A DNA stretch of 63,966 nt, filler included, from a bacterium (GTDB lineage Bacteria; UBA9089; CG2-30-40-21; SBAY01), in assembly GCA_040757115.1 (NCBI GenBank). It is 7 parts of 7 records of this genome, joined end to end, with 100 filler letters (N's around TTAATTAATTAA, not from the genome) between each part and the next. Parts side by side here need not be neighbours in the genome. Positions count along the whole stretch, not along the records: positions 35,376 to 41,215 come from JBFLYA010000231.1; 6 more parts are not named here. One strand, given 5' to 3'. Every line of letters begins with the position of its first letter. Positions within the stretch are counted from its first letter, which is position 1. Both the position numbers and the translations under genes were made by a program. This document shows positions 7,155-47,438 of the stretch, in pieces. The notes below the pieces were generated by a model, which was not told the origin of the DNA, did no database searches, and saw nothing but the letters and a program-made list of their open reading frames with translations.

Positions 7155-7163
7155 TTTTGTCTT

Positions 7164-7744
7164 CTCCTGAAAATAAGGAAGTAGAAAGTAGAGAGTAGAA
7201 AGTAGAAAGTAAAGAAAACATCACTCCTCACGCCTATCTCCTTACCTCCCATCTTCTATCTCCTACCACTATTTTCATTCTCATTTGTGAACCAACGGTT
7301 CATGACCGTTTCCCCTGAAAATCGGGACTCGGGACTCGGGGTTCGGGAAGAAAGAAACTCTCAGCAATTCCCCCTTAATAAAGGGGGTTAGGGGGTTGTC
7401 CTTCTCCCATTTTCATTGCCCTTTGTGAGCCCTGGCTCATGTCCGTTTCCCCTGAAAATAAGGAAGTAGAAAGTAGAGAGTAGAAAGTAGAAAGTAAAGA
7501 AAACATCACTCCTCACGCCTATCTCCTTACCTCCCACCTTCTATCTCTTACCACTATTTTCATTCTCATTTGTGAACCAACGGTTCATGAGCGTTTCTCC
7601 TGAAAATCGGGACTCGGGACTCGGGGTTCGGGAAGAAAGAAACTCTCAGCAATTCCCCCTTAATAAAGGGGGTTAGGGGGTTGTCCTTCTCCCATTTTCA
7701 TTGCCCTTTGTGAGCCCTGGCTCATGTCCGTTTCCCCTGAAAAT
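7164..7744. repeat. Family-D array: four ~52-bp structured repeats with alternating cargo (285-bp tandem duplication)
   Basis: Repeats at 7271-7322, 7409-7459, 7556-7607 and 7694-7744; half-site at 7164-7174. Confidence 0.9.
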
Positions 7745-7864
7745 AGTTTTTGCCACAAAGACTCAAAGGCACAAAGTATAAATTTTATGGTGACTCAATT
7801 ATTACATTTATTATAATATATAATTTTATTGATGTCAAGAAAAAATTTGGCAAGATTATGAAAC

Positions 7865-9070
7865 TCAAGTAGTATAATGGGCATTAAGGCGGACATATTC
7901 CATAGATAAATCACTGCCTAAGACCATTATTTCCTGTCTGCCTTGTTTTAAGTCAATCGTAATTAAGATTTCTTTTTGAGATAAGATATTTTTAACTTTA
8001 TCTAAATTAAAAGCTATGCCCTGTCCATTTTTTGCAATTAATTCTCGGTCGAAATAGATATCAATTATGTTCGGATTTATTTTTATCCCGGAATACCCAC
8101 AGGCAGTTATAATTCTTCCCCAATTAGGGTCCTGACCATAAAAGGCACATCTAACGAGTTGTGATTTGGCAACACTCATTGCGACCTGTTTTGCCTCAAG
8201 AAATGATTTTGCTCCTTTAACATTAATTTTTAGAAGTTTAGTTACCCCTTCTCCTTCTTCTACCATCTTTTGGGCTAAATTTGAACATACATAATCTAAT
8301 GACTGTTGGAATTTGTTGAAATCATTCGTGTTAGAAGAAGTTATCACTTCATTTTTTGCAAGACCATTGGCTAAAAGAATAACCATATCATTTGGGCTTG
8401 TATCTCCATCAATGGTGATTAAGTTAAAGGATTTATTCACCGCCGTAGTTAATGCCTTTTTTAATAATCTTTTACTGATAGCGACATCTGTAGTGATAAA
8501 AACTAACATTGTGGCTAAATTTGGGCATATCATTCCGGCGCCCTTTGCCATAGCGCCTATTTTTGCCTTAATTCCACCAGTTAGTTCAAATTCCAGAGCA
8601 ATCTCTTTAGGTTTAGTATCCGTTGTTAGAATAGCCCATGCGGCATCTTCACTTTTTGGACCCAGGAATTTAATTAATTGTTTTATTCCCTTTTCAATCT
8701 TTTCCATTGGTAATGGTTTTCCAATGATACCTGTGGAGGCAACTAAAACCGTCTTTATCGGCACGCCAAGAGAAAGTGCAGTAATTTGTGCCATTTTTTT
8801 AGCATCTTTTAACCCTTGCTTGCCGGTACAGGCATTAGCATTTCCACTATTAATGATGATAGCGTGGATTTTTTTTGAGGTTTGTAGATGTTCTTTTGTT
8901 ACAATTAAAGGAGCAGCCTTAAGTTTATTCCTGGTAAATAGAGCTACAGCCGTAGCGGGTATCGGGGAATAGATAAGCGCTATATCTTTTTTCTCTGGTT
9001 TTATGCCGCAGTGCCCTCCGGCAGTTAAAATGCCATTTATAGATGTAATCCCACCATTTATCTCTTTCAT
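7865..9070 (-). CDS. argJ: Bifunctional ornithine acetyltransferase / N-acetylglutamate synthase
   Basis: NSGNANACTG, STGIIG, TTDT, KGAGMICPNLATML, DPNWGRI. Confidence 0.97.
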   Translation of the reverse strand: MKEINGGITSINGILTAGGHCGIKPEKKDIALIYSPIPATAVALFTRNKLKAAPLIVTKEHLQTSKKIHAIIINSGNANACTGKQGLKDAKKMAQITALSLGVPIKTVLVASTGIIGKPLPMEKIEKGIKQLIKFLGPKSEDAAWAILTTDTKPKEIALEFELTGGIKAKIGAMAKGAGMICPNLATMLVFITTDVAISKRLLKKALTTAVNKSFNLITIDGDTSPNDMVILLANGLAKNEVITSSNTNDFNKFQQSLDYVCSNLAQKMVEEGEGVTKLLKINVKGAKSFLEAKQVAMSVAKSQLVRCAFYGQDPNWGRIITACGYSGIKINPNIIDIYFDRELIAKNGQGIAFNLDKVKNILSQKEILITIDLKQGRQEIMVLGSDLSMEYVRLNAHYTT

Positions 9071-9080
9071 TTAAAACTCT

Positions 9081-9229
9081 TCTCCTGAAAATAAGGAAGT
9101 AGAAAGTAGAGAGTAGAAAGTAAAGAAAACATCACTCCTCACGCTTATCTCCCTATCTCCCACCTTCTATCTCCTACCACTATTTTCATCCTCATTTGTG
9201 AACCAACGGTTCATGAGCGTTTCTCCTGA
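9081..9229. repeat. Family-D unit upstream of argJ
   Basis: Near-identical to 7164-7318; supplies the AGGAG SD of argJ. Confidence 0.8.
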
Positions 9230-9240
9230 TAACTGAAATG

Positions 9241-9474
9241 GTAACCGTTCAGATAGTAATTCACCGCAGAGGGACAGAGAAGACATGGAAATAAATCAGA
9301 TAACAGAAAAGATTAGGTAATACATAAAACATCAAAACCAAATTTGTTAATCAATCATGATATGTCGGTTCTTAAAAGCTTGCCCTGATGAAAATCAGGG
9401 ATGGAATAAAGTGTGTGGTAAATAGTTTTTTATTTTTTTCTCTGCGTCTCTGTGTCTCTGCGGTGAACGGTTAC
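9241..9474. mobile_element. Family-C IS66-type MITE
   Basis: TIR GTAACCGTTCA; 8-bp TSD CTGAAATG; MEINQITEKI remnant at 9285. Confidence 0.8.
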
Positions 9475-9535
9475 CTGAAATGGAGTATTGGAGATAATTC
9501 TATCACTCCCTTACTCCAATTCTCCCTCACTCTAA

Positions 9536-10387
9536 CTAAATTTGCTCTCTAAAATTTTTGACTTCTTCAAATTCTTTTATTAATACTTCTGAATTAGTAT
9601 TTTTAATCAAATCTTCCCATTTCTCAAGGATTTTTTTAAAATTATCAATAGATTTTAAAAGTTCCTCTTGATTGGTCAGGCAAATATCTCGCCACATCAC
9701 CGGATGACTGGCGGCTATTCGGGTTGTATCTTTAAATCCAGAGGCTAATAGCGATATGATTTTTTTATCCTGCATTTTTATTAAATCAACTAAGGCTGTG
9801 GCGATGATATGAGGTAGATGACTTGAGTAAGCAATTAATTCATCGTGTAGTTCTGGGGACATTTCTACTACCTTTGCTCCAATACCTTCCCATAACAAGC
9901 GAACAGTTGATATTGCCTTACCATTAGTTTGAGGAATAGGAGTGATGACACAGGTTGCTCCTTCAAATAAGTCAGGTTTTGCGACCTCAATTCCAGACTC
10001 CTCTGAGCCGGCTAAAGGATGTGCACCAACAAAATGTATCTCACCAGAACTAAAGGACGGGGTAAGTTTTCTTACAATTTTTTGCTTGGTGCTCCCAACA
10101 TCCATAACAATAGTTCCCATCTTTAAATAAGGCACCATCTGGTTAGCGATGTCCATAATCGAATTAACCGGGACGGCTAAAATAACTAAATCTACCTTTT
10201 TTACCCCAAAGTAAATATCAGTTACAATTGAGTCAACGGCGCCTAATTTTAATGCCTGTTGTAATTTTTCTTCTCGGCGGCCAATACCAATTATATTTTG
10301 AACTAAATTAGCCTTTTTTAAAGCCAATCCTAATGAGCCGCCAATTAATCCGACGCCAATTATGGCTATTGATTTTATCCCTTCCAT
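9536..10387 (-). CDS. tyrA: Prephenate/arogenate dehydrogenase
   Basis: GVGLIGGS, DVGSTK, HPLAGSE, SHLPH, DTTRIA. Confidence 0.95.
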   Translation of the reverse strand: MEGIKSIAIIGVGLIGGSLGLALKKANLVQNIIGIGRREEKLQQALKLGAVDSIVTDIYFGVKKVDLVILAVPVNSIMDIANQMVPYLKMGTIVMDVGSTKQKIVRKLTPSFSSGEIHFVGAHPLAGSEESGIEVAKPDLFEGATCVITPIPQTNGKAISTVRLLWEGIGAKVVEMSPELHDELIAYSSHLPHIIATALVDLIKMQDKKIISLLASGFKDTTRIAASHPVMWRDICLTNQEELLKSIDNFKKILEKWEDLIKNTNSEVLIKEFEEVKNFREQI

Positions 10388-10410
10388 CTCACTATCCCCT
10401 GTTCTTTCTC

Positions 10411-12120
10411 TCATAGAGCTTCAAACACCTCAATATTAAATAAACCTATGTTACTACCAATTGCCTCATCAACGGTAAATATTACCCAGGTAATATTGCG
10501 TGGTTTAAAAGTAAAGGCATTTCCCGTCCCATTATTTGATAAAGCACTTATGGGAATAGAACTACCATCACTAAAACTCATAGTTCCTTTTATTATCCTT
10601 TCACTATAGTCCTGTCTATCATATAAAATCACCCGATTTACCAAATGAGGTTCTTTCCAGATTAATTTAAGATATGGTCTTGAAACTGAACCCGTTGATA
10701 CCCATTTATCACGGTTGCCTTCATCCTTTGTTTGCCCATTGCGAACAATTCCTGATGAGACTGAAATACTTGCATATTGAGCAATGTTAGCTGGATAAAC
10801 CTCAAATTCTGCTAAACCACTATTCAACCCCTTGCAGGAGTCTATTACAAATTTGACCCATGAAATTCTTCTTGGTGGAAAAGTAATAACCGTTTCTGCA
10901 CTATTGTTTGGAAGTGCCCCAACCTTTATTTTTAATGTCTTATCGCTAAAAATAAGAGTCCCTCCAGTTATCCAGTCATCCAGATTCATTCTATCACGCA
11001 AAATTATTTTATCTATCAAATATGGCTTATCCCAATCTAACTTAATCCATGCACCCGTTCCTTCTGAATTACTTACCCATTCATGGAGATAGTTTTCAGG
11101 GTTGTAAAAAACATCAACCATTCCATCAACGGCTTTAGTCCCTAATTGGGTAGTAGAGGTATTTTCTGATGAAACAGTAACAGTAGATAGAAAAGCAATA
11201 TTTGAAAAATCACGCAGCCAAAAGATTTCATCAGATTTAACAAATGAATAATGATAGTCGTTGACTTTAGATGTATGACAATGAATTGCCTTATACTTTA
11301 AATTTACCGTTGGGTCATTAAGGGGAGTTTTAAGCATAGCAGGTGGAACAGATATATGATGAATATCAGACCATTTTCGAGGTGTCAGTATCCCAAGCGT
11401 AGTTGGACAGGTAAATGGGACAACTTGATGGACATCTAAATTTCTCGCAGGCCATTTGTCATCTCCACTCACTGAATGCACAATAGCCGCATAAACTTTT
11501 GGAGAATAGGAAGGCATTTGCCTTTTTATCGACACTATTGATTCCACAACAAATTGATGAACTCCCTGATGGTCACGATGTAAATCATGTAATCTTGTAG
11601 TATAGATAGTTTCTGGTAATTCTTCTTTTAATATTGATTTAATAGCTTTTTTAAGGTTCTTTTTGGTAAGTAATGCTGGTTCGCCAAACTTAGTTGTAAA
11701 GTAATCAGGATGGTCAGGTAATCCATAAGTATAATTCCAATTTTCTCTATGAGGTAAGTAAATTAGCGTATTTTCATTAGATTTATCAAATAAATCTCGT
11801 ATGGTAGCCGCTCTATATCCTAAAAAATAAATATCATTTGGATTTAACCCTAAAGTAGCCAGACCGTTAATTGATTCCTGTAAGGCAATACGACCTTGCT
11901 CTTTTGTATCAGGGTCACCATTGGTAACTATTACCACTTTAATACGGTCACCGTCGTTGACGGCACAATTTATAATACCAGCCGTCATTAAAACTTCATC
12001 ATCAGGATGAGGTGAAAATACGACAATGTTTTTGGAAAGACAGTTACCGGTAATTAAAAGAAACCAACATAGAAAAAAAGTTCTTATCTTTACCATTTTG
12101 TAATCAAAAGAAAGAAACAT
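10411..12120 (-). CDS. Secreted PIG-L/LmbE deacetylase with two C-terminal discoidin-like domains
   Basis: PHPDDE, HRDH, and repeated W..L.W.....I..I.L.DR modules. Confidence 0.8.
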   Translation of the reverse strand: MFLSFDYKMVKIRTFFLCWFLLITGNCLSKNIVVFSPHPDDEVLMTAGIINCAVNDGDRIKVVIVTNGDPDTKEQGRIALQESINGLATLGLNPNDIYFLGYRAATIRDLFDKSNENTLIYLPHRENWNYTYGLPDHPDYFTTKFGEPALLTKKNLKKAIKSILKEELPETIYTTRLHDLHRDHQGVHQFVVESIVSIKRQMPSYSPKVYAAIVHSVSGDDKWPARNLDVHQVVPFTCPTTLGILTPRKWSDIHHISVPPAMLKTPLNDPTVNLKYKAIHCHTSKVNDYHYSFVKSDEIFWLRDFSNIAFLSTVTVSSENTSTTQLGTKAVDGMVDVFYNPENYLHEWVSNSEGTGAWIKLDWDKPYLIDKIILRDRMNLDDWITGGTLIFSDKTLKIKVGALPNNSAETVITFPPRRISWVKFVIDSCKGLNSGLAEFEVYPANIAQYASISVSSGIVRNGQTKDEGNRDKWVSTGSVSRPYLKLIWKEPHLVNRVILYDRQDYSERIIKGTMSFSDGSSIPISALSNNGTGNAFTFKPRNITWVIFTVDEAIGSNIGLFNIEVFEAL

Positions 12121-28894: not shown

Positions 28895-29018
28895 ATAGGT
28901 AAGACTTAGGAAAAATTCAGGGAGTGAAGTTTTGAGGATGGTTTCCCAAAATGTCACTAATTTCCTGCATAAATAGAGTCTATAGTCTTGTGTCTGATGT
29001 CCAGTGTCTGAATCACAG
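28895..29018. repeat. Repeat shared (inverted) with 36871-36990
   Basis: Near-identical reverse complement ending CTGAATCACAG. Confidence 0.75.
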
Positions 29019-29334
29019 TAAAAGATTAATAAACAACGAAACACCCGAAATGCACAAAAAAAAGGAAATTTCTGTCTCTGGTGAATAGATTTTAATTTTT
29101 TCTCTGCGTCTCTGTGTCTGTGCGGTGAACGGTTACCAAATAGGATACCGGTGCGAAATATTCCACAAGTAGTTTAATGCAAATATCAAAATGTCCAAAT
29201 CAAAAGGACAAAGCAAAATGCAAAAATACTTGTAAGGCAATAAAAAAAATCAAATATTAAATATTAAAAATCAAAAATAAGAATAAAAGAATTCCTTAAT
29301 TTTGATATTTGCTCTTTGATTTTTGATATGATAT

Positions 29335-35020: not shown

Positions 35021-35375
35021 GGAAAATAATTATACTCACCAACGGCACAAATTAAGATTTTTTAATAGGGACTCGATAGCCAGGTGATATAGGGTTTGTA
35101 AGATATATTACCATAAGTAAGTGTTAAAAAATGTCAACAATTATTGTTTTGAACCTTCAATTCAGACATAAAAAAGAAGATATAAGGGGTAATAAAAAAA
35201 AGATTATTATTTTGGATAAGGAAGATAGGGTTGATAAAAATGAGATATGTTAGTTTCTCTGATGGTGAGATTGTANNNNNNNNNNNNNNNNNNNNNNNNN
35301 NNNNNNNNNNNNNNNNNNNTTAATTAATTAANNNNNNNNNNNNNNNNNNNNNNNNNNNNNNNNNNNNNNNNNNNN

Positions 35376-35426
35376 GTCTGTAAAGATGGACCGGTATTTA
35401 GTGCTTTGGAGATAGTGTTATGCTAA
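35376..35426 (+). CDS. C-terminal fragment of a PyrK-like electron transfer subunit (contig edge)
   Basis: VCKDGPVF motif. Confidence 0.6.
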   Translation, partial: VCKDGPVFSALEIVLC

Positions 35427-35778
35427 CTATTCAGCCACTGATTAACACGGATTAGCACGGATAAATAGCAGAAGGCAGAGAGCAGAGGGCAGAAGGCAGA
35501 GGACAGAAAGCAGAAGGCAGAGGCAGGTTGTCCCCCGCTGGCGGGGGATTAAGGGGGTGGAAATTTCCTCCACTGGCACAGATGAAATCAGGCTCGGGGC
35601 ACCCATGCAGAGCATGGGTCGTGTGGCTACCAGCCTTCCCGAGTCCCGAACTCCGAGTCCCGAGTCCCGATTTTCAGAAGAACCCTTCAGCCTTCAGCCT
35701 AATTACGGACACGGAAAACGGACACGATTCACGAATTTTCAGTGTTTCATCTGTGTCCATCTGTGGCTGAATAGTTAC
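35423..35778. mobile_element. Family-E IS66-type MITE
   Basis: TAACTATTCAGCCAC / GTGGCTGAATAGTTAC; GCAGAGG heptamers and CCCCCGCTGGCGGGGG palindrome. Confidence 0.72.
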
Positions 35779-35932
35779 CCTGGATTAAAGCGGACTATAG
35801 AAGTCTCAAAAATAGATAACTAAACCTACCAAATACAAAATAGCCTTTTATTCAAATTCCAAATAATACTCCATTGCGTTAGTTCAACCCAGAATTGTGT
35901 GTCGGCGTTGCTCCACACAAATTCTTAATTCG

Positions 35933-36157
35933 TTAGGCATATTGTTTTTGTCTCTTAATAATATCAATTAATGATCTTAATGCTTGATTTACAGATTCAT
36001 GGTCAGGGAAAAATTTGATAACATCAGGATCAACAACTACAACATTTGTTCCTTCACAGTATTTTTTTGCGTATTTTCCCTGAATACCTTTACTGAAATC
36101 ATATTCTTCAAGCATATCTCGATCTTTTTGCATTCTCTTCATATTGTTTCCTTTCAT
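35933..36157 (-). CDS. BrnA-like antitoxin
   Basis: EYDFSKG..GKY, V.VDPDV..FF, VNQALR; its stop codon lies within a GCCTAAC inverse core site. Confidence 0.8.
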   Translation of the reverse strand: MKGNNMKRMQKDRDMLEEYDFSKGIQGKYAKKYCEGTNVVVVDPDVIKFFPDHESVNQALRSLIDIIKRQKQYA

Positions 36158-36404
36158 TTTTTGTTGCCTTTCTTGAGCTTATTATTCTAATTTTATCCTC
36201 TCTTCCTGTATGAACAGTTACTAACACACGATGTTTAACTGAATTCCCAATTAAAATAAATCTGTCTTCTTGCTCAGAATGTAGAGGATCATAGATTGTT
36301 AATGATAGTGTATCGCTAAAAGTTGTGCTGGCTTCATCAAAAGATATCCCATGGACATTTATATTCTTAATTGCTTTTCTTGGATCCCACTCAAATAATA
36401 ACAT
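36108..36404 (-). CDS. brnT: BrnT-family toxin
   Basis: FEWD..K...N...HGISF, EDRF..IG, IRIIS.RKA. Confidence 0.9.
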   Translation of the reverse strand: MLLFEWDPRKAIKNINVHGISFDEASTTFSDTLSLTIYDPLHSEQEDRFILIGNSVKHRVLVTVHTGREDKIRIISSRKATKNERKQYEENAKRSRYA

Positions 36405-36446
36405 ATTTCATTTTACCAATTCATCTTGAGTGTTAATATTTTATTT

Positions 36447-36576
36447 GTCTAACGATAGAGCTCACCTGCCGCCAACAGGCTGGGCACAAAACTTTGAAAA
36501 ACCACTAACCTTTGATGGAGCACAGAATTTCGAAAAACCGCACGCTGTTGGCGGTCAGGTGCAGCGAATGATAATA
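36447..36576 (-). other. attC site (degenerate R'')
   Basis: Minus strand GCTGCACC...GGTGAGC-6nt-GTTAGAC; homologous to 39560-39692. Confidence 0.8.
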
Positions 36577-36824
36577 ATTAAAAGGCACTTGAAATCGATC
36601 GTACAGTATGATATAATACCAATGAGTTTATCGCTTTAACCACACCTGGATATATATATGAAAACATTAATTGCTTAACCTTCTCCTCTGAGAGGTCAGA
36701 TGATCTTCTTCAGAGGCATACATATCCAGTATGTGGTCTGGAAGGCGCTCGGGTCGCTCTCCAGCGTTGCCCTATCCTCCTCCCAGGGGAGAAAGCTAAA
36801 AAATTAGCTACTATATATTATAAT

Positions 36825-36853
36825 ATTATAGCCTTTTCTTTGGCTTGCGTCAA
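36825..36853 (-). promoter_or_regulatory. Strong sigma70-type promoter inside the cassette array
   Basis: TTGACG-17-TATAAT. Confidence 0.65.
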
Positions 36854-36870
36854 GTATTATTTTGATAAGC

Positions 36871-37094
36871 CTGTGATTCAGACACTGGACATCAGACACA
36901 AAACTATAGACTCTATTTATGCAGGAAATTAGTGACATTTGGGAAACCATCCTCAAAACTTCACTCCCTGAATTTTTCCTAAGTATTACCTACAGAAGTA
37001 TAGGCAGGTCTCTCAAGCCTTCATTCTTCTGCAATTTCTGCCCGCTTTAGTCTGAGGTCTGATGTCTATAGTCTACTGTCTGAATCACAGTTAC
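36871..37094. mobile_element. MITE truncating an attC site
   Basis: CTGTGATTCAGACA / TGTCTGAATCACAG(TTAC) inverted ends. Confidence 0.65.
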
Positions 37095-37167
37095 TAAACC
37101 TGATAAAATACCAGAAATTTAAGTTCATCGGACAGCTCTGGCTGTTAGGTGCACGCAATGGTTAGGC
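37095..37167 (-). other. Partial attC downstream of the RT
   Basis: Minus strand GCCTAAC-CATT-GCGTGCACC; the distal half is lost. Confidence 0.65.
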
Positions 37168-37225
37168 GGAATATTTCGAGTTTCGGGATTAATTCCAGAT
37201 ATTTATTTTAATTAATGGTATAAAT

Positions 37226-38722
37226 TTAATACATCATTGCTTTTTTCTTGAATATTTCAATTTCCTCGGGCTGAACAACTTCTGATGCATCATATACCGA
37301 ACCAACAACTATTTTTGACACATTTAATGCAGATTTTAATTTTTCGCTTGAGATCCAATCATTTACCCAAAGTTTAGGATTTTCACCATTTACAATTTTG
37401 CATATTACTTCATTGCTAGAAAAGGATATTCCAACTGACTTTGGTTGTGTTATTCTTTGCAACCAGATTTCAAGATAGCCGTTATAGGGAACACGTGACA
37501 TCTTATTATGTACTTTCGTCCATAATTTTGTTTTATCTCTTTGGGGAGCAAGTGCGATAAGATGGCTTAGAATACCAGCAATAGCAGGAAATGTATCTGG
37601 AGAAATAAAACCAATATCAACTGCAATTGCAACTTGTACTTCAAGATCATCTGGTGCTTCTGTTTGTTTTGTAATTTTTGTATGGAATTCACTCACTAAA
37701 CGCCGTAACGTTCCACTATTCGGGAATTGCTGTCCAAATTTATGCAATCGTAAAAGTTGCTTCTGAATTGTCTTTGCATTATCAAGTCCTAAATCTTGTA
37801 AATCAATACCGGCCAATTTATCAGGTTTGATAGCCCCCTCAATGACATTTTTAGTAAGATACGTTTTTGAAACACCTACTTTCATCCCAACTGGTCTTAA
37901 ATTGTCACTAATTATTTTAAGTATCTCTTCTGCACGTTCATCACTATTTGTAAATATCCTATAATCATCACGATATCGTAATATGCGAAAATCTGTCGAA
38001 CCACATAAAGAGTCATTAATTTGTTTGTCTATAAAACCAAGGACGATCTCTGCCACAAAGTCCATTAAAACAGGGCCCTGTGAAATACCATTTGTTTGAC
38101 CATATCGGCCCGCCCTTATATGTGAGTCAATTATATTCCCCAAAAGTGAATTATCATTTTTCTTCGCCTTAGCGGTTTTTATACCATGTAACGCCCATGA
38201 AATACTGTGGGTATAAAGAGATGCGTAGCAGTCAATTACGTCTGTATGAAGTAAGTGACTAAACTCCAAAGAATATATTAAAGATTGTTGCTCAACGCAT
38301 TGCCACCAACTTGTAATTTGTTTAGCTACATCTTTTTGATCATCAAGTGACATGACAGGAGCGCTACAACAATAAACGACACCATCTTCAAATTCTGCTA
38401 TCCTATTAGTGATAAACTTCCAATTATCTGGATCACATATAACATTTACCAATGAAACATAAATTACTGGATGTATAAGCTCAAGTGGCCTCCAAGCAAA
38501 TTTGCCATCTTTGTTTGAGATGAAGCTATAGTTTACACCTGAATAATCATTGGGATTGGCAACTTTAAATTCTAAATAATGACGCCCATTTAGTATAGTA
38601 TCAACATCAGATAAAATTTGATCAAAGCTAATGTAGTCTGGTATATCTGCGTTAAAATAACTACTTCCTTTTAAAAAGTGTTTTTTTGCTTCTTCATTTG
38701 TTAGGTCAATTAATCTTTTCAT
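37226..38722 (-). CDS. Reverse transcriptase, UG/Abi class (Abi-P2/DRT4-like), putative anti-phage
   Basis: KDGKFAWRPLELIHP, TDVIDCY.S.YTHS, NGISQG, RYRDDY, then a helical C-terminus; no maturase or retron VTG motif seen. Confidence 0.85.
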   Translation of the reverse strand: MKRLIDLTNEEAKKHFLKGSSYFNADIPDYISFDQILSDVDTILNGRHYLEFKVANPNDYSGVNYSFISNKDGKFAWRPLELIHPVIYVSLVNVICDPDNWKFITNRIAEFEDGVVYCCSAPVMSLDDQKDVAKQITSWWQCVEQQSLIYSLEFSHLLHTDVIDCYASLYTHSISWALHGIKTAKAKKNDNSLLGNIIDSHIRAGRYGQTNGISQGPVLMDFVAEIVLGFIDKQINDSLCGSTDFRILRYRDDYRIFTNSDERAEEILKIISDNLRPVGMKVGVSKTYLTKNVIEGAIKPDKLAGIDLQDLGLDNAKTIQKQLLRLHKFGQQFPNSGTLRRLVSEFHTKITKQTEAPDDLEVQVAIAVDIGFISPDTFPAIAGILSHLIALAPQRDKTKLWTKVHNKMSRVPYNGYLEIWLQRITQPKSVGISFSSNEVICKIVNGENPKLWVNDWISSEKLKSALNVSKIVVGSVYDASEVVQPEEIEIFKKKAMMY

Positions 38723-38795
38723 CTTAATTCCTTTTATTACATTTGGGGATCTTATTAGATATGATATTAAACTTTAAAATATGATGATATTTACC

Positions 38796-38928
38796 GCCTA
38801 ACGATAAAGCTCACCTGCAGCAGGGAGAATTACTACTAAACTTTATAAGCACAATTACCCCTTTGAGATACTACAAAACTTTCAATCACGGCACAGCCCC
38901 CGCCGTCCGCTGCAACGATTTGTTAGAC
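38796..38928 (-). other. attC site (133 bp)
   Basis: Minus strand GTCTAAC-5nt-GTTGCAGC...GGTGAGC-6nt-GTTAGGC. Confidence 0.88.
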
Positions 38929-38936
38929 AAAATACT

Positions 38937-39323
38937 TCATACCTCCAATGTACCCTCACTAAAATCTATCTTTAATTTAAGTTCAACCAACGATTTTATC
39001 CCCAGCAACCCATCTACATAGCTTTTTGGCGGAAGATCATGAACAACAACCTCAACCTCTTTTATCCTCTTTCCCAGAACAACTATAGACTCCAGGGTAG
39101 CCAAAGGAGCTTTTTCCACTCCACTGGCAGTGATTATTTCTATTCTTTCTTTGGATAACTCTGGTTCTAACCCTAAAATTTCAGCAGTTTTCCAGGGAAT
39201 CATAGTATAAGTTGCTCCTGTATCAAGAGCCATCCTTATCTTCTGCTTGGAGTTACTTTTACCCTCCAATAGGATAGATAGTATAATTACTGGTGCTTTG
39301 GTATTAAATCTAAATTTTGGCAT
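38937..39323 (-). CDS. Clan AA (retropepsin-like) aspartyl protease
   Basis: ALDTGAT and DGLLG motifs. Confidence 0.88.
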   Translation of the reverse strand: MPKFRFNTKAPVIILSILLEGKSNSKQKIRMALDTGATYTMIPWKTAEILGLEPELSKERIEIITASGVEKAPLATLESIVVLGKRIKEVEVVVHDLPPKSYVDGLLGIKSLVELKLKIDFSEGTLEV

Positions 39324-39540
39324 AGAATACAACCGCATATCCTTTAGTAGGAATTTTTCCTGTATAGAAATGGTAGGAGTACTTACCTTTTACTTTTTTC
39401 ATTGCGTCATAGGTCTCATCTCTATCTTTAGAATGTGTTATTACCTTCAGTTCTGTAGGCTCTCCCAGTTCGTCTTCCTTCAATACTTCGGCTAATACCC
39501 ACTCATCTGTGTATTTTTCTTTTACCTCTTTCAATTTCAT
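39310..39540 (-). CDS. Small protein coupled to the aspartyl protease
   Basis: KEKY.DEWVL..V..HS.DR; GGAGGA SD; overlaps the protease start. Confidence 0.78.
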   Translation of the reverse strand: MKLKEVKEKYTDEWVLAEVLKEDELGEPTELKVITHSKDRDETYDAMKKVKGKYSYHFYTGKIPTKGYAVVFYAKI

Positions 39541-39559
39541 TTCTCATCCTCCTATCATG

Positions 39560-39692
39560 GTCTAACGGCAAAGCTCACCTGCCGCCAACAGTATACACCA
39601 CAAAAATTTGAAAAACAACTAAACTTTTATAGGGCACATAACTTTGAAAAAACCACCAGCGGTTGGCTCTCAGGTGCAGCGATGGGTTAGGC
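39560..39692 (-). other. attC site (133 bp)
   Basis: Minus strand GCCTAAC-CCATC-GCTGCACC...GGTGAGC-TTTGCC-GTTAGAC, with the extra L'' base. Confidence 0.92.
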
Positions 39693-40571
39693 TTTTTTAA
39701 TTTCCTGTTCAAATTGCTTAAACTTCTCACGACATTTTTTCAATGATAATCTGCGTAGTTTTTTCACTCGCTCAGCAAGGTATTCAAGTTCTTGTTTTGT
39801 TATTTTATAATTCTTGCTGTATCTTGCATCAACATAAGCCTTCTTAAGAAGTTCAAATAATCGCTTTTCTTCACCCTCTTTTCTTGGAAAGATCTTACAG
39901 AAATCCTCGTCAATCTTCTCTATCCGCTTGGTCAGTTTCTCTAAATCATGGGTTCTGGGTTTGTAGGAGGTAAGAACAAGGGAAGTGCCAGTGTATAGGT
40001 GTTCTGTGGTCTGGTGCAGGCTGAATGCAGCCTCGTTGTTCCAATCTCTTTCAAGCTGAAGCTTGTAAGTTCCAAACAGCCTCTTCGCCTTTGGAAACCA
40101 AAGAGCAAGATCCTCTTCCGCTAACTTCTTCTTTATCCCAGGAGTAAGCTTCCTTGCCCGGGCTAATTGGAACCTCTTTGAGTCATAGAGTAAGATGCCT
40201 TCTTTTTTGATGTCAGCATAGAAGTATCTGCCAACCGAGAGTTGCTCATTGACATGCTCAATATCTTCAATGATTAAGCTTACAGGGGTAGGGATTTTAC
40301 GGCTGATCTGATTCTCTATCTTTCCCCAAATCTTAAAATCCTCAGGCTTTTTCTCATCCTTTACGATCACCATAATGTCAAAGTCAGACTCATAGCTGGT
40401 AAAGTGCCCCTCTTCTTTATCATAGCGAAAGTCAGAGTCAACAAAGTCTCCCCTGGCATAGCTGCCAAACAGAATAATCATCTCTACCTTGGTGGCATGA
40501 GAGATGAGATTGACAATAGTCTCTAACTCCCTCTGTTTTCGAAAAGGAAGATGGTCTAAAGTTGTTTTCAT
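39687..40571 (-). CDS. Nucleotidyltransferase (MNT)-HEPN fusion protein
   Basis: ILFGSYARG, SDFD, AAF.LHQ..E, THDL, AYVDARY; stop codon lies within attC R''. Confidence 0.9.
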   Translation of the reverse strand: MKTTLDHLPFRKQRELETIVNLISHATKVEMIILFGSYARGDFVDSDFRYDKEEGHFTSYESDFDIMVIVKDEKKPEDFKIWGKIENQISRKIPTPVSLIIEDIEHVNEQLSVGRYFYADIKKEGILLYDSKRFQLARARKLTPGIKKKLAEEDLALWFPKAKRLFGTYKLQLERDWNNEAAFSLHQTTEHLYTGTSLVLTSYKPRTHDLEKLTKRIEKIDEDFCKIFPRKEGEEKRLFELLKKAYVDARYSKNYKITKQELEYLAERVKKLRRLSLKKCREKFKQFEQEIKKA

Positions 40572-40593
40572 GATAATCCTCAATAATTCAGTA

Positions 40594-40651
40594 GCCTAAC
40601 AAGTTATTATATAGTTTTCTTTACTTTAACACAATAGCCTCAAAAAGTCAA
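40594..40651 (-). promoter_or_regulatory. attI-like core site with an upstream Pc-like promoter
   Basis: GTTAGGC at 40594-40600 with no attC arm; TTGACT-17-TAAAGT with extended -10 at 40623-40651. Confidence 0.55.
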
Positions 40652-41548
40652 GAAAAAATTCGACAAAAACCAATAAATTCTCTATAACTCTAACTGGTTA
40701 TCATTAACTTTTTACATGATATACAGAAAATAGGATAATTCTGCATGATTAATATACCAATCCATATTCCGCACTCATCCACTAAGGAAATAATATTTTT
40801 AGGACTGATAGGAAATTGCTTTTTTGAGTGTTTTGGGTATTATATCCATTTGTGCCCATTGTGAGGATATTTTACCTCAAATTTTATCCTATGTCAACAA
40901 AAAATTCGGCTCTTTTGAAAAAATCCAAAAATTAGTATCAAAAATCTGCTCGATTAGATTAGGACAAAATCATAAAAATGGACATTGTCAATGACGATTT
41001 TGGACACACTTATCCTGCATGGTATGCTGATGGGAGAAAACTAGTACTGTGTTAAGTAAATTTTTTCACAGTTTTTTCTAAAGTTTTACTGATAAAATGA
41101 CGATAATTCCACGTGGGCATAGAAATTTTAAGGAGGAAAGAATTATGCAAAAAAGATATCCACGTGGTCCAAAACCAAATTCATTTGATTTATCAGGAGA
41201 AATTCTCAAAACTATNNNNNNNNNNNNNNNNNNNNNNNNNNNNNNNNNNNNNNNNNNNNTTAATTAATTAANNNNNNNNNNNNNNNNNNNNNNNNNNNNN
41301 NNNNNNNNNNNNNNNAATAAATTATCAAAGAGCAGATTATGTTAACAAGATTTATCTCAATTTTTAGTTTTTTTAAATTTAGTTATATCTTGCTGGGGGA
41401 TAGTCTGTCTTTTTTTACTTGACATTATACCGCACATCTTTATCGTCAGGAAATGTCAAAAACTTTCGACCTGGATGATTAGAATTAGGCTGAGAGTTTA
41501 AACTCTATATCACCTTCATCAAACCATTTTTTAGCCTCATTGTTTCTA

Positions 41549-42948
41549 GAGGATGTCCTAATCTCTGTTGAAATTCTCTGAGCGGCCCCCTCATATTTTA
41601 AGCCACCTTCTTCTCAAGAGATGGCAATTTTGTTTTTAAGAGTCTGGATGAGAAAAGGTATCCTTTTGAATCATTTTTCTGCCTCTATTAAAACCCTACC
41701 ACTGCCCATCTGAGAACCATTGAATCATTTCTCCAACATTTTACATTCCCAGTTATATCTCTTATTCCAGAGAGAGTGCTTTCAATCACATTAGTTGTCT
41801 GTAGAGATTGGCGAAGCCTCTTTGGAAGTATAAGTTCAATTACCGTAAAAGTCTCCTCTAATCCTTCACGAAGACTTGTATCCGCTCCCGGGTAATCTTG
41901 CTCAAGACGCAAAGCAAGATTGCTAATAATTTTCTTTGCTGTATCCAAACTCTCACTTTGATAAGATTAACGCATACTCATCTCTACAGAGATCTGTAAG
42001 CCTTTTGGCAGATGACTCTTTACATTCTCTATTTTATGGCGTTGGCATTTCTGAATACGAACATCACCAAAAGATTCTCTCACTGCTTTATAGAGTGCCT
42101 TGGAACCATCAATTACTACAAGAGTAAATTCTTTATTCACCCTCACATCACGCTCAACCAGATTGTTATCAAGGACTGGACTACCTGGGCATTCTCTGGT
42201 GAACCTTCATATACTCCTAAAACATGCTTTATATCCTCTTTGATTCACTCCTACCGCTACAACAATAGTATGTTTCCCAAAGATAACTCCATCTATGTAG
42301 AGAATACAAATATCTAACTCTTTTAGTGGTCTGCTAAGCCATTCTATAAATCTTTTGGTAGTCATAGCTACAAAACAGCCACTTATGGTACTCTTACTTG
42401 TTGCCCTTGAAACTATTGAATGAATATTGGTCTCTAAAGAATCCCCATATCTTCTGGTACTTACCCTTATCAATATCTGATTTAGTACCCTCTCCTTAAG
42501 TGGGTCTTTATCTTTTAGATGTTCATAGGAAAGAAGAGAAAGTTCTTGTTTATTTTTTTCCCTTACTCGTGGCCTCTCTATTTGTACTTTTTGGCCTCCA
42601 AGGATTATCTCTCCTTTTGTATTACCCCAATGAAAGGCATTCCTAACTTCTTGGTGTTGATAACAAGGACCACATAAAGTATCTACATCCTCTTCAAAGA
42701 GAGCTCTTATAACCCGGAATCCTGAAGATATAGCTAACTCTAAAAACTCTGCCTTAACATCTATCGATATCTCTAATGGTATTTTTCTCTTTCCTCCTTC
42801 ATAAACTTCTTGCAATTTCTTCTGGTTTATGGTATTATTTTTCATAAGCGGTTCCTCCTTTTAAAGATTTTTTATCGACCCCTGATTATTATAATATATC
42901 AGAGGAGGTAACCGCTACTAAAATTTCAACAGTCAACGGGACAATTTC
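41549..42948 (-). mobile_element. IS256-family element with a fragmented transposase (42207-42845, 41688-41948)
   Basis: Imperfect 27-bp TIRs; RPRVR, VSTR, YIDG, TTNVIES motifs; frameshifts and a deletion. Confidence 0.85.
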
Positions 42949-42949
42949 A

Positions 42950-43160
42950 AACAGAGGGACAATGTTTTTCGCTTTACGCACTTCCCAAAGAAAAAGTCAT
43001 AGAAGTGCTCCAACGTTTAGTTGAAGGTAATGGTATTAGAGCTCCAGAGCGTATCACTGGGTTGAGTAAAGATACGGTCAACTCGTTATTAGATAAGGTA
43101 GCACAACATATAGAGAAGGTTTCTGAGTTAATTCTCAAAGACATTGAAGCTAAAGAATCC
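42950..43160 (+). pseudogene. IS1-family transposase remnant
   Basis: RGTMFF..LVEGNGIRA.ERITGLSKDTV, resembling the HTH of the 44616-44975 ORF. Confidence 0.6.
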
Positions 43161-43214
43161 TCATTAGTTTTGGTGTTTTTACAAATAAATTACTTACCTA
43201 TTATACCATAGATA

Positions 43215-43840
43215 GATCAAGGGGTTCTCCAGTCATCAAGAAAGTTCTTGGTAAAGTATTTGGGAGTGTTTTGATCTGTGATTTTTTCAGTGCCGATGGG
43301 AAGATAGTCGCCTGGGCTAAACAGAGGTATATTGTGCATTTATTTGGTGATTTAGAAGAGATATCCACCAAGAATAAAAGAATCCTGAATGGTTTAAGTT
43401 TAGAAAGAAACTTAAACCATTACTAAAGGATGCTCTGCGTCTTTCTAATAAGCAGAAAGAAATAGAACCCAATGTTTATATGTCAAAGAGCAATAACTTG
43501 CATAAGCGACTTGAGATAATATACAACCAAGAATATAATGATGCTGACTGCAAGCGTTTGGCTAAACGACTCATGAGATACAAAGATGAAATATTCACCT
43601 TTGTAGATCATCCTCAAGTAAGTGCCCACAACAACCATGCTGAAAGACAGATAAGACCCGCAGTCATTATGAGAAAAAACTCTTATTGTAACCGTTCTCA
43701 CCAAAGTGCTGATACCCAAGCAATATTAATGTCAATATTTAGGACATTACATCCTCGCCAGATTGGTCCTATTTCTGCATTAAGTAATTCACTTTCTGAA
43801 TGGATCAAAACAGGGAATGTTATCCCATTGTCCAATATTT
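43215..43840 (+). pseudogene. IS66-family transposase remnant; its right end resumes at 45111-45142
   Basis: VLICDFFS, FTFVDHP.V..NNHAERQIRPAV.MRK; terminal GGTTAAATCGTTAC. Confidence 0.82.
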
Positions 43841-45110
43841 GGTGGTGTCTGAAAATAGCTAGTCTCCTCTAACTGAATAGGTAAGCCATTCCTCTATACT
43901 CCAAACATGGTCAGTTAGTCCAGCAGCCATGGCCGGAGTTCGCTTCTGCCAGTATCCCTCTATGTCCTTTATTCGTAATGTTCGCACTACCCAACAAAAA
44001 TTGTAGCTGAATCCAATGAAGTAAGAGATTGCATTATGTAGATTCCAGTCCTTCGAAAAGCAATAAGTCTTACGCTTCTTTCGTGAGTTCTTCCCACGAT
44101 CCGTACCATTGTTTCGTTCCACAAATGAGGTATTAATTGTAGTACTAACCCTAAACCGTGCAAGCAATCTCTCCAACAATTTCACTGTGCCAAATACAAT
44201 CGTTTTCACCACTTTGACTACACGACCTTTCTCCCGCTTTTTGCTCACTGTAGCATAACACAAATCCTCTGGCATTTTTTTCTCAGGCTTTGAGGAATTT
44301 CCCAAATCACCATCTTCAAATGGCTCTATTTCATAACTATAACTTTGTTCAATGGCGCAAGTGTATGCTGAATAATCATCACTGGTAATTAACAAATCTG
44401 TTCGTCCACCTGTCCGCTTTTTGACATCTTCAACCACCTGACACCAGTTTTCTTTTGTCCGCTTCCCAGACACCAGACTTAACAAAAGACGATGTTCAGG
44501 GTCTACGGCAGTATGGTCTCCCTCATCACCTCGAAAATAATCCAGAGGATCTTCCTGATTACAATTAGTTTCCTTTTTTGATACAAATCCCCACTTCTCA
44601 TCAAGTTGTATCTCTTTAGTCTGAGGGGGAAAAAGCCACTAATTCATCATGCACCTTCTTAGCATAATCTCCAGCTAATCGTGCATATCGAGTTACTGTG
44701 TTTTTGTCCACTCCCACCAACCGGCTGGTGGCACGCGTCCCACAACCCTCCTGAATATGTTTCATTACCGATATTACCACTTCTGCTGGCAATCGTGCAT
44801 AATTCAACATTGTTCCTTTTCGCTCCGAAAAATGAGCACCGCAACTCGGACAATAAATCAGCCGAATCCGTTTCCCTTTTCCACTCCATCCAGAGAAAGA
44901 AAGATTTTCTTTACCGCGAATATTGTAATTCGGACAAGAAAAATTCTGACAACAAAAATGTTCTATTGGATGCATCGTTTTCTCTCCTTTGTAAAATTTC
45001 GGTACCCCAAACCTCGCTCCTGATAGACCCACAAGTTAGTCTTGAATACTTACCTTATTATAATTATCGAGACGATGCATCCTAAACTTTAGCTTGTTTC
45101 AGACACCACC
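43841..45110 (-). mobile_element. Apparently complete IS1-family element (ORFs 44616-44975 and 43859 to about 44630)
   Basis: 14-bp TIR GGTGGTGTCTGAAA; 8-bp TSD CAATATTT; zinc finger + HTH ORF, TTTTTCCCCC slippery site, DDE ORF with NTSFVERNN and RTPAMAAGL. Confidence 0.92.
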
Positions 45111-45130
45111 CAATATTTCACTTCAGATGG

Positions 45131-46663
45131 TTAAATCGTTACTTTTATTTTAATTGGATTAGAATAAAACCATTTATCTGTCGAAGACTTACCTCGAATC
45201 CTTACATAAAAATCATTGTCAAAATTTGTAATTTTGTAGTTCATGATAAGATAACCATCTTTTTCTATCCAGTCTTTTGAAGTAAATACTTTTGTCAATT
45301 TTGGTTTCCCAGAAATATTTGAGATGAGTTCAATTTTAGTTATTTCTTCATTAAATCTTACTTTAATAGATACCACAACAGGATCTCTATTTTTAATCTG
45401 TAACACTTCACCCATCATAACTCCACTCATCATCTCAGAGGAAACTGTAAACTCTAAATCTGTAATTATATCTCCATGGACACAATACATACAACCACGT
45501 CGCAATCCTTTTATTACACCTTCATAACTCTTTGTCGGACAAAAGACATATGTCTTTGAATATTCACCCGGATAATAATTAAAAAAAGGATTATGGAAAT
45601 CACTTTCAACACGAATCCAGAAATTTCTCTCCTCACTTAAGAGAATATCCCAAGTACCACCAATTTCACCCACCATTGGATCATAACCATCAATTAAATC
45701 ATATCCTGGAATATGAATCTTCTGATAGCCTGGTGCCCCTGCAAATCCTATAAATACATCCCCCACCTTATCATACGCTCTTAATTCTTCAATCGTGTAA
45801 AGGCCAATTCTACTAGGATGGTTTAGACTACAAATTGGTAATACTCCATTAGCCCTTTGAGAATTAAGCCATCTTAATCCTTCTATTGCATCATTAAGTT
45901 CTGTTTTACCAGAAACAAGACTATCATAGTTAAGCCTAAATTTTTTTATTATTTCATGTTCATTAGGGACATTGGTCACAAGTATAGTAGCATGTTCACC
46001 AGCAGGAATGTTCCATTCCATCCCATCAAAGATTACTATGTCAGGACAGGTAAATCTTGCATTTTTTATTGCTTGATAATAACTTAAAGTCCCAATTTCA
46101 GCCTCTCCATGAGGTGTAATTGCGATAAAGTCACAGCCAAAAAATTTTGCTTTTTTAACAATTTCTGTTTCAGGATAATCTCCCTCACTCATAACTGTAT
46201 GCACATGTATATCTCCCATTAACCATACTCCTTTATCATACCAAGGTAATTTACTTTCTCCTCTTTGCCAATGCCTAATAAATAATTTTCCAGAGGCATA
46301 AGTGCAGACTGGAGGATTAATTCCATCATCAATTATACCATAAATATAGTAGTTTCCTTCTGAAATATCTGAAGTATTCCAAAGATAAATATTAGTATTT
46401 TCATCTTCGTCTATATTTTTGACTATTAAGGTTGCATTAAAGGTTCCGGTATTATCTTTGTTAAAGTAAAGGGCAATTTTTGCATTATTATCTGGATCAC
46501 TATCATCCCAACTAATGATATAGGATTCATCTGCTTCTCCTCCTGGAGCAAAAGGAGTAATAATAGTCATAGATGGTTGGATGTTGGTTCCCATTACTTT
46601 TGTTACAAAAAGTATTCCCCCAATAATGATTATTATACTTAATAAATATCTACTTATTTTCAT
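45131..46663 (-). CDS. Secreted PHP-domain (CehA/McbA-like) metallohydrolase with an Ig-like N-terminal domain
   Basis: Signal peptide, GDIHVHT, MEWN..EH, NHP, ESDFH, YSNPI. Confidence 0.82.
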   Translation of the reverse strand: MKISRYLLSIIIIIGGILFVTKVMGTNIQPSMTIITPFAPGGEADESYIISWDDSDPDNNAKIALYFNKDNTGTFNATLIVKNIDEDENTNIYLWNTSDISEGNYYIYGIIDDGINPPVCTYASGKLFIRHWQRGESKLPWYDKGVWLMGDIHVHTVMSEGDYPETEIVKKAKFFGCDFIAITPHGEAEIGTLSYYQAIKNARFTCPDIVIFDGMEWNIPAGEHATILVTNVPNEHEIIKKFRLNYDSLVSGKTELNDAIEGLRWLNSQRANGVLPICSLNHPSRIGLYTIEELRAYDKVGDVFIGFAGAPGYQKIHIPGYDLIDGYDPMVGEIGGTWDILLSEERNFWIRVESDFHNPFFNYYPGEYSKTYVFCPTKSYEGVIKGLRRGCMYCVHGDIITDLEFTVSSEMMSGVMMGEVLQIKNRDPVVVSIKVRFNEEITKIELISNISGKPKLTKVFTSKDWIEKDGYLIMNYKITNFDNDFYVRIRGKSSTDKWFYSNPIKIKVTI

Positions 46664-46714
46664 TTTATTTTCATTGAAAGTCTCTAAAGTTATAAAGTTA
46701 TTATGTACATTCTA

Positions 46715-47015
46715 CTAGTGCTCTGTCGCCATTCAAATGATTGATTGGCCGTTGTCCCCGCTGGCGGGGGTAGGGGGGTGGATTCTTCTATTTCAGATTT
46801 CATATTCCACCCCCTTAATCCCCCCGCCAGCGGGGCACATCAATTGAGTAGCGACAGAGCACTAGTGCACTCTCACATAAGTTTTTAATAGTCTGCTTCC
46901 TCTCCGACTCTCTGTTCTTGCTTCAGTGGCAGCCGCAACCTTTAGGTTGCGAAATGATCGCAGGCTGAAACCTGCGGCTACCAATCTATTAGAAATTTCT
47001 GTGACAGAGCACTAG
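46715..47015. mobile_element. Two tandem IS630-type MITEs at CTAG sites
   Basis: CTAG at 46715, 46862 and 47012; ends TGCTCTGTC / GACAGAGCA; cargo is a GC palindrome pair and a REPIN-like doublet. Confidence 0.75.
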
Positions 47016-47152
47016 TGCTCTGTCACTACTTAATTGATGGATAAAGTCGTTTCAGTTTAATCCTTGCATCTGGGGTCGTAAATTGCCAATCCACTTTAGC
47101 CCCTGCATCATTTCTTTCTGATTCCCAAGCCGCTACTTCTCTTTTCATCTCA
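47016..47152 (-). mobile_element. IS630-family transposase C-terminus and end (contig edge)
   Basis: AAWESERN...VDWQFTTPDARIKLKRLYPSIK*. Confidence 0.8.
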
Positions 47153-47438
47153 NNNNNNNNNNNNNNNNNNNNNNNNNNNNNNNNNNNNNNNNNNNNTTAA
47201 TTAATTAANNNNNNNNNNNNNNNNNNNNNNNNNNNNNNNNNNNNNNNNNNNNGGAGGAATTTGGTAATATCTTTGCTTCAAGTATTTTAACGCTGAAAGG
47301 AAAGAGATAATTTTACATTTTGATATGTAATTTTTATATTTGCTTTTTGCATTTTGATTTTTGGAGAATACCCGCTTAAAAACTACAGTTTCTTAATTTT
47401 GCAGAACTCTACAATTATCAGGCAAAGGAGGAAGAGAT

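Follow-up and report, generated by a model that had tools for sequence, protein, structure and literature searches.

A gene of the Abi-P2 family on what is most likely a decayed and immobilized integron cassette

We analysed a stretch of 63,966 nucleotides (the window) from the genome of an uncultivated groundwater bacterium (GTDB lineage Bacteria; UBA9089; CG2-30-40-21; SBAY01; assembly GCA_040757115.1), which encodes a 498-residue protein related to reverse transcriptases (RT). The protein is a member of the Abi-P2 family of class 1 UG/Abi enzymes, and not of DRT4/UG15. The best explanation of the locus, to which we give a probability of roughly 80%, is that this Abi-P2 enzyme is encoded on a cassette of a chromosomal integron, and that the cassette has decayed and is now most likely fixed in place. 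The window is made of at least four separate contigs joined by linkers of N, so that gene neighbourhoods are unreadable across the linkers; only the 5,840-bp piece at 35376-41215 (JBFLYA010000231.1) is contiguous with the RT gene, and all genes on it lie on the minus strand (Table 1).

The AbiP2 profile of PADLOC aligned to the RT protein over positions 4-487 of its 489 (E = 2.7e-187, 621.5 bits). The runner-up PADLOC families were RT_UG14 (160.7 bits), Drt6 (156.9 bits) and Drt4 (at most 137 bits), and AbiK was a weaker match too. The NCBIfam model for Drt4 reached 123.5 bits, below its cut-off of 450, and the profiles for group II introns (TIGR04416) and for the retron St85 reached 36 and 28 bits against cut-offs of 300 and 235, respectively; Pfam gave only a weak match to RVT_1 (8.9e-10). 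The best solved relative was the Abi-P2 structure, PDB 7r08 (E = 2.4e-71, RT residues 1-491), and the AbiK structure was matched by sequence at 1.9e-9 only. The prototype RTs of P2-EC30 and P2-EC58 are 30-31% identical over 99% of the protein (tblastn, E = 2e-71).

An AlphaFold2 model computed from an alignment of 75 diverse relatives, drawn from a library of 1.84 billion representative sequences, was confident (pLDDT 93.3, pTM 0.93); a first model, from 30 close relatives, had a pLDDT of 47.6 and was discarded. The structure comprises an RT-like lobe of fingers and palm followed by a C-terminal α-helical solenoid, with helices spanning residues 300-471, in the place where the thumb would be. 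Six chains of 7R08 took ranks 1-6 in a Foldseek search with this model (TM-score 0.81-0.87, root-mean-square deviation 3.0-3.8 Å over about 480-490 residues); TM-scores were lower for DRT6 (0.63), DRT4/UG15 (0.60-0.65) and AbiK (0.54-0.58), and did not exceed 0.4 for the RTs of group II introns, retrons and diversity-generating retroelements (DGR). An earlier interpretation of the window (hereafter the sequence-only reading) had called the gene a UG/Abi-type RT and had left its clade open; PADLOC, NCBIfam and the 7R08 fold now fix it as Abi-P2, the helical-repeat C terminus raised there as a point to check is present in the model and resembles that of 7R08, and the protein does not fall among group II intron, retron or DGR enzymes.

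The residues expected of an active polymerase are in place. The same reading had reported a 498-codon open reading frame (ORF) with a YRDD motif, which is borne out (LRYRDDYRIF, Y250-R-D-D253). All 75 relatives carry the aspartates D161, D252 and D253, and the position of Y250 is occupied by Tyr in 69 and by Phe in 6 of them. According to Figiel et al. 2022 (PMC9508834), the substitution Y61F abolished DNA synthesis by Abi-P2, whereas Y46F did not. Chain residues 46 and 61 of 7r08 are both tyrosines and correspond to RT positions 15 and 30, Y30 pairing with residue 61 in a gapless N-terminal alignment. Because Tyr46 and Tyr61 of the paper both fall on tyrosines, we equate its numbering with that of the chain, and Y30, kept in 30 of 30 close and 73 of 75 distant relatives, is the probable priming tyrosine.

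Motif B differs from that of the family, as had been noted from the sequence: the RT protein reads GISQGP (within NGISQGP at 211-217), in contrast to GIPQGS in the Abi-P2 family and GIPLGS in 7R08. S214 is typical of the clade (Ser in 29 of 30 close relatives, Pro in 68 of 75 in the wider family). P217 is private to the window copy (1 of 30); Ser takes this position in 29 of the 30 close relatives and in 70 of the 75 distant ones. Against a relative with 90% identity (locus L018), dN/dS is 0.22 over 441 codons; comparisons with 7 other relatives gave pN values of 0.14-0.23 and pS values of 0.78-0.91, with synonymous sites saturated. These substitution patterns indicate that the RT gene is under purifying selection.

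We located attC sites with two Infernal covariance models, R1, built from 15 sites (alignment A3), and R2, built from 61 matches. The attC structure imposed on the alignment is supported by covariation: 84.3% of cells are paired, as opposed to 27-38% when the partners are slid, and the alignment holds 68 double-sided changes versus 23.8 when shuffled, with none of 500 shuffles reaching the observed score. Other detectors were discarded: one that combined minimum-free-energy folding with strict core motifs gave 12 sites only, its looser version missed known sites, and with two scorers based on arm alignment, true sites could not be told apart from controls taken from ORFs or shuffled sequence. 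The covariance models, in turn, missed some sites read by eye (for example in L044, L045, L063 and L075).

In the whole window both models found exactly three sites, all on the strand of the RT gene and within 3.3 kb around it. The array begins with an attI-like region whose counterpart in the nearest genome (G001) lies directly upstream of, and overlaps the start of, an ORF for an integron integrase (intI). The region ends in GTTAGGC, the ending expected of an attI. In the window, the intI start is found on the plus strand (ATG at 40745) and continues for the first 8 codons only (MINIP...); homology to the integrase region of G001 ends at 40768, and is followed by a repeat and then by the end of the contig. 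Integron-integrase fragments in G001 score 215, 208 and 125 bits. The RT gene occupies the third cassette, immediately after the intact attC of cassette 2, of which G001 holds many copies with 75-91% identity. The R' of that site, GTTAGGC (38802->38796, core G/TTRRRY), forms the 5' boundary of the RT cassette, 73 nt ahead of the ATG.

Past the RT stop codon the site is incomplete. R'' (GCCTAAC, 37167->37161) lies 58 nt downstream, and the sequence matches the local attC type up to ...GGTTTAGT (37167->~37091) and then diverges. A 3' arm complementary to it is not present in the window: the only match to GCACCTAACAGCC with zero mismatches is the arm itself, and no plus-strand copy with up to 2 mismatches exists there. 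The loop of the attC is instead entered by a miniature inverted-repeat transposable element (MITE) of 220 bp, with imperfect terminal inverted repeats of 42 nt (I20). Elements of this kind are abundant in G001 (at least 25 matches, 88-99% identity), where the copy at C220 485-704 interrupts intI, and a partial copy lies at 28896-29019 of the window. The passage from RT through attC into the MITE is real, since an independent Logan contig (from run X1, in which 94% of the stretch is found) reproduces 37064-38892 exactly. The spacings of about 73 and 58 bp given by the sequence-only reading are therefore correct as measured to GTTAGGC and GCCTAAC, and its description of the gene as bounded by attC sites stands for the upstream site, which is complete, and falls short for the downstream one, which retains R'', L'' and a portion of its loop. 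Its term "shufflable" does not hold for this copy, whose attC is without L' and R' and whose intI is cut to 8 codons on the contig.

Several observations touch on this site. In L018 a complete attC lies 40 bp past the stop (1366-1464); the 3' untranslated region aligns with that of the window up to R'' and then diverges, the attC of L018 being a different one. The RT attC arm of the window has the look of the attC type native to its host, which would suit an exchange or homogenization of the attC with the gene left in place. In a run from a marsh metagenome, this 5' arm of the attC accompanies an RT gene whose DNA is about 93% identical. We considered a composite attC made of R'' at 37167 and R' at 36453, and rejected it, as L'' and L' of the site at 36447-36572 already pair well with each other. 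Joints between attC sites in contigs, considered as evidence for excision, were likewise rejected: their sides are 20-26 letters long, and we read them as repeat cross-matches.

Relatives of the RT gene recur as cassettes elsewhere. Of 8000 proteins scored in a word-indexed search, 3200 reached E <= 1e-3; the best 120 are all 496-521 residues long and 71-100% identical to RT, and those from named organisms (Chloroflexi, Caldilineaceae, Thermodesulfobacteriota and the betaproteobacterium Aromatoleum) are 71-76% identical. A genome-contig search with the single RT protein returned one locus only (L009), from a metagenome-assembled genome (MAG) of Candidatus Anammoxibacter, an anammox planctomycete (73% identity); with the RT query no Abi-P2 homologue was found in G001. 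We scored 89 loci together with the window, including the best 80 of 189 confirmed metagenome loci (65-90% identity) and 8 viral loci (36-41%). R2 gave 94 matches at E <= 0.01, 3 in the window and 91 in the loci, of which 88 lie on the RT strand and none inside an RT ORF.

Among the 80 metagenome loci, R2 found at least one attC in 43, and in 36 a site was adjacent to the RT gene on at least one side (starting no more than 150 bp past the stop, or ending no more than 150 bp before the start). Downstream sites are present in 24 of the 70 loci in which 200 bp or more were available, upstream sites in 20 of 65, and 11 of 58 loci have an attC on both sides, which makes them complete single-gene cassettes of 1613-1795 bp. 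The training sites of R2 came from the relatives' loci that it then scored. R1 gave 30 of 80 on either side, 21 of 70 downstream, 17 of 65 upstream and 10 of 58 on both, with 13 of the 21 downstream sites not being seeds of the model. Near-duplicate loci across assemblies (L022/L023; L037/L038/L055) make the counts overstate the number of independent lineages, and they should be taken as approximate minima for the loci, several of which may trace back to a single event. None of the 8 prophage-type viral loci has any attC by R2. In the complete cassettes 13-89 bp precede the start codon and 1-93 bp follow the stop. The sequence-only reading had proposed a single-gene cassette whose boundaries define a minimal unit; this is what the 11 complete relatives look like, whereas the attC of the window copy is incomplete. 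Its remark that little room is left for a template non-coding RNA or a partner gene is supported by flanks of at most 93 bp.

Some of the relatives' loci depart from the single-gene form. In 6 of the 80, a gene for an RNase_T-type exonuclease of 231-237 residues follows the Abi-P2-like gene after 36-43 bp: L037 (4458-5171, the same as L038 and L055), L053, and L065 (5223-5918, the same as L068). The exonucleases form two lineages with proteins 68% identical (Pfam 3.1e-14 and 1.8e-12). L037 has an attC (5192-5277) only after the exonuclease gene, and a two-gene cassette variant consisting of Abi-P2 and the exonuclease is possible. In L025 (74% identity, ~5497-5570), an R''-like GCCTAAC lies 34 bp past the stop and a ribosome-binding site with a new ORF comes immediately after it; no model matched a full attC there, and here too a cassette may have become fused to the DNA that follows.

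What the enzyme would do can be proposed from its homology to Abi-P2 and AbiK. It would attach the first nucleotide to its own Y30, and would then make random single-stranded DNA without a template, in the channel between the palm and fingers and the helical lobes. It would act as a single-protein abortive-infection enzyme, with neither a partner gene nor a non-coding RNA. Rfam returned nothing at E <= 1 on 35376-41215, which together with the short flanks of the relatives fits an enzyme working independently of any RNA or partner. The gene would have arrived as a promoterless cassette in a chromosomal integron, and the integron would then have decayed: the MITE entered the loop of the RT attC, the 3' arm was lost and intI was interrupted. 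It is these three lesions that make the window copy most likely fixed in place. Since no convincing promoter was found inside the cassette, expression would depend on read-through from upstream promoters. Promoter-like sites are found upstream, at 40651->40623 in the attI-like region and at 40897->40869 in the repeat beyond it, but sites of this kind are no commoner than in shuffled sequence. The second of them is near-consensus (TTGACA-17-TAAAAT) and is directed towards the cassettes, so this promoter, in the repeat that replaces intI, might drive them.

A number of observations weigh against this interpretation. R1 and R2 recognize no full attC behind the RT gene, even with filters off, and the window copy thus lacks the complete attC of its own, 3' of the gene, by which a cassette is defined. 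An intact intI is not seen on the RT contig, where the gene is broken after 8 codons. A convincing promoter inside the cassette is also missing, promoter-like sites numbering 23 against 18.5 expected from shuffles. Thirty-seven of the 80 relatives' loci are without any attC by R2, many of them being short and some sites visible by eye having been missed, and no attC lies near a truncated copy on an Agrobacterium plasmid (68% identity, covering residues 1-434); some members of the clade may therefore reside outside integrons. P217 adjoins the Q-G of motif B, and the window copy may be impaired as a result. Finally, the enzymatic activity and anti-phage role proposed here are carried over from characterized Abi-P2 proteins with which RT shares 30-31% identity.

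The most serious alternative, which we nevertheless consider unlikely, is that the cassette is intact and that its 3' arm is missing through an assembly artefact, two different MITE copies having been joined chimerically, so that the DNA after 36871 would not truly follow the RT gene. In favour of this are the near-identical MITE copies in G001, at least 25 of them, and a word depth of 7,000-11,000 over 36789-37169 against about 293 for RT. Moreover, the RT-bearing Logan contig ends 27 nt into the element, at 37064, four contigs with differing flanks meet its other end, at 36870, and the DNA after the MITE is a cassette that is seen alone at the start of G001:C103. The join between RT and MITE is, however, exactly reproduced, so that the attC is interrupted in any case; unitig depths on the two sides are alike (285-305 versus 293.5), and no MITE followed by a matching 3' arm occurs among the contigs listed. 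It is also improbable that we are dealing with a relic in decay, kept in a dead integron, whose Abi-P2-like product is no longer active in defence. The private S217P at a nearly invariant position would fit such a relic, as would the intI cut after 8 codons, the truncated attC, and the MITEs and insertion sequence (IS) fragments around the locus. Yet the ORF is full-length with all catalytic and priming residues, the dN/dS against the closest sequenced relative is low, and the predicted structure is confident across the motif.

Two further alternatives concern the nature of the enzyme, and we attach almost no weight to either. DRT4/UG15, AbiK and other UG-class enzymes do give weaker profile matches (Drt4, RT_UG14, Drt6, AbiK), and UG15/DRT4 structures are found by the model too, but no other family exceeds 161 bits where AbiP2 reaches 621, Drt4 remains far under its NCBIfam cut-off, and TM-scores to all structures other than 7R08 are at most 0.65. 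The idea that the enzyme depends on a template, as an RT of the retron, group II intron, DGR or DRT2/DRT9-like kind with its RNA encoded in the flanks, would find some encouragement in a strong sigma-70-like promoter (36853->36825) followed by GC-rich, hairpin-prone DNA about 400 bp downstream of the gene on the same strand. This stretch, however, lies past the attC and the MITE in another cassette, which has an attC of its own, and its homologue in G001 is without an RT; the group II and retron profiles, the empty Rfam search and the flanks of the complete relatives argue in the same direction.

The region between the MITE and the next attC deserves description. The promoter there (TTGACG-17-TATAAT) agrees with the consensus at 11 of 12 positions, and some MITE copies share homology past the element, to ~36824, which spans it. 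On the minus strand, 36447-36870 comprises this promoter, then the hairpin-prone DNA, and a possible ORF of 29 codons ending at the attC with TTATTAT. That attC has a good L'', L' and R'. Positions 36445-36795 are 80% identical to G001:C103 1-351, a contig that bears three attC sites of its own.

The other cassettes of the array encode proteins of the toxin-antitoxin type and other candidate defence proteins. In cassette 1, a fused nucleotidyltransferase-HEPN gene has its stop codon within the R'' of its attC; it shows a weak match to PADLOC PDC-S09 and 73% nucleotide identity to G001:C303. The protease of cassette 2 matches Pfam Asp_protease_2 (7.3e-15), and the two ORFs of this cassette match both components of the PADLOC candidate system PDC-M08 (PDC-M08A 7.1e-6, PDC-M08B 5.7e-11). 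Downstream of BrnT, the 74-residue partner has no family match. Beyond the linker, the piece at 41316-47152 is littered with remnants of mobile elements: it carries fragments of transposase genes of the Mutator, IS66 and IS1 types, an ORF with weak similarity to TnsD and a gene for a PHP-domain protein. A neighbouring contig piece carries a housekeeping gene, for an OTCase, whose best named relative is a Nitrospirota MAG protein (77% identity); on this ground a cyanobacterial host, first suggested by heptamer repeats and the abundance of MITEs, was rejected.

Table 1. Positions of the features discussed, counted along the whole window.
Feature	Position	Strand	Evidence or remark
Linker between contigs, N run with TTAATTAATTAA in the middle	35276-35375		
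Short attC-like site after the BrnT cassette	35882-35938	-	R1 9.3 bits, E 0.27; read by eye
BrnT toxin cassette	35933..36404	-	BrnT 36108-36404, Pfam BrnT_toxin 4.5e-27; 74-aa partner 35933-36157
attC after the MITE, R'' replaced by TTATTAT	36447..36572	-	R1 38.3 bits, R2 43.4 bits; R'' positions unmatched
MITE in the loop of the RT attC	36871..37090	.	95% identical to G001:C220 485-704
Remnant attC behind the RT gene (R'' GCCTAAC, L'', part of the loop)	37091..37167	-	aligns to three local attC sites
ORF of the Abi-P2-family RT-like DNA polymerase, 498 aa	37226..38722	-	third cassette after the attI-like site
Cassette 2 attC, intact, 133 bp	38796..38928	-	R1 68.9 bits, R2 54.7 bits
Cassette 2, two ORFs	38937..39540	-	76-aa ORF 39310-39540; 133-aa retropepsin-like aspartyl protease 38937-39338
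Cassette 1 attC, 133 bp	39560..39692	-	R1 64.4 bits, R2 54.4 bits
Cassette 1, fused nucleotidyltransferase-HEPN, 298 aa	39687..40583	-	Pfam HEPN 4.2e-12, Polbeta 2e-9
attI-like region, then GTTAGGC at 40600->40594	40601..40768	-	90% identical over 173 bp to G001:C220 1174-1345
Repeat beyond the attI-like region	40804-40918	-	copies in G001 C122 and C341
Linker between contigs, N run with TTAATTAATTAA in the middle	41216-41315		
Linker between contigs, N run with TTAATTAATTAA in the middle	47153-47252		

Phage-borne Abi-P2 resides in the variable Z/fun locus of P2 prophages, and the enzyme assembles as a trimer or hexamer with three-fold symmetry. With the Abi-P2 of P2-EC30 and P2-EC58, as described in PMC9508834 and represented by 7R08, the window RT shares a length of about 500 residues, a full-length alignment, the fold, the catalytic aspartates and the priming tyrosine, and like them it is encoded by a single gene without a partner. 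In contrast to these prototypes, from which it also differs in sequence (28% identity in the Foldseek alignment), it lies on an integron cassette. DRT4/UG15 and AbiK, which are protein-primed, template-independent class 1 UG/Abi polymerases, have their general architecture and presumed chemistry in common with RT (PMC9508834, PMC12783706), but their profile and fold scores are far lower than those of Abi-P2.

Anti-phage systems carried as integron cassettes, with integrons acting as defence banks, are the subject of the preprint of Darracq et al. 2024 (doi 10.1101/2024.07.02.601686). The RT cassette is like those systems in combining a compact, single-gene defence function with a sedentary chromosomal integron; it is unlike them in that its host is not a Vibrio and that an ORF of 1.5 kb is large for a cassette. 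The terms AbiP2, Abi-P2, DRT and retron do not occur in the main text of that preprint, and full-text literature searches gave no paper that combines integrons with AbiP2 or Abi-P2. Both the enzyme and its vehicle were known before, and the general principle of integrons as defence banks is already published.

A more far-reaching idea, which we regard as a long shot, is that the 498-residue clade with a GISQGS-type motif is an integron-adapted Abi-P2 that moves across phyla as a cassette of 1.6-1.8 kb, in which the protein-linked single-stranded DNA made by the enzyme on infection would switch on the integrase through RecA and the SOS response. In a sister branch, the RNase_T-type exonuclease added to the cassette could trim or control this DNA. 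If the idea were true, phage attack would trigger a reshuffling of the bank of defence cassettes.

The window copy has decayed, and its main value is to illustrate the immobilization of a cassette by MITEs. The complete cassettes of 1.6-1.8 kb in its relatives provide an independent line of evidence from nature that a polymerase of the Abi-P2 type is self-sufficient, with neither a partner gene nor a template RNA, and they indicate that integrons too, beyond P2 prophages and plasmids, spread the Abi-P2 family across distant bacterial groups.

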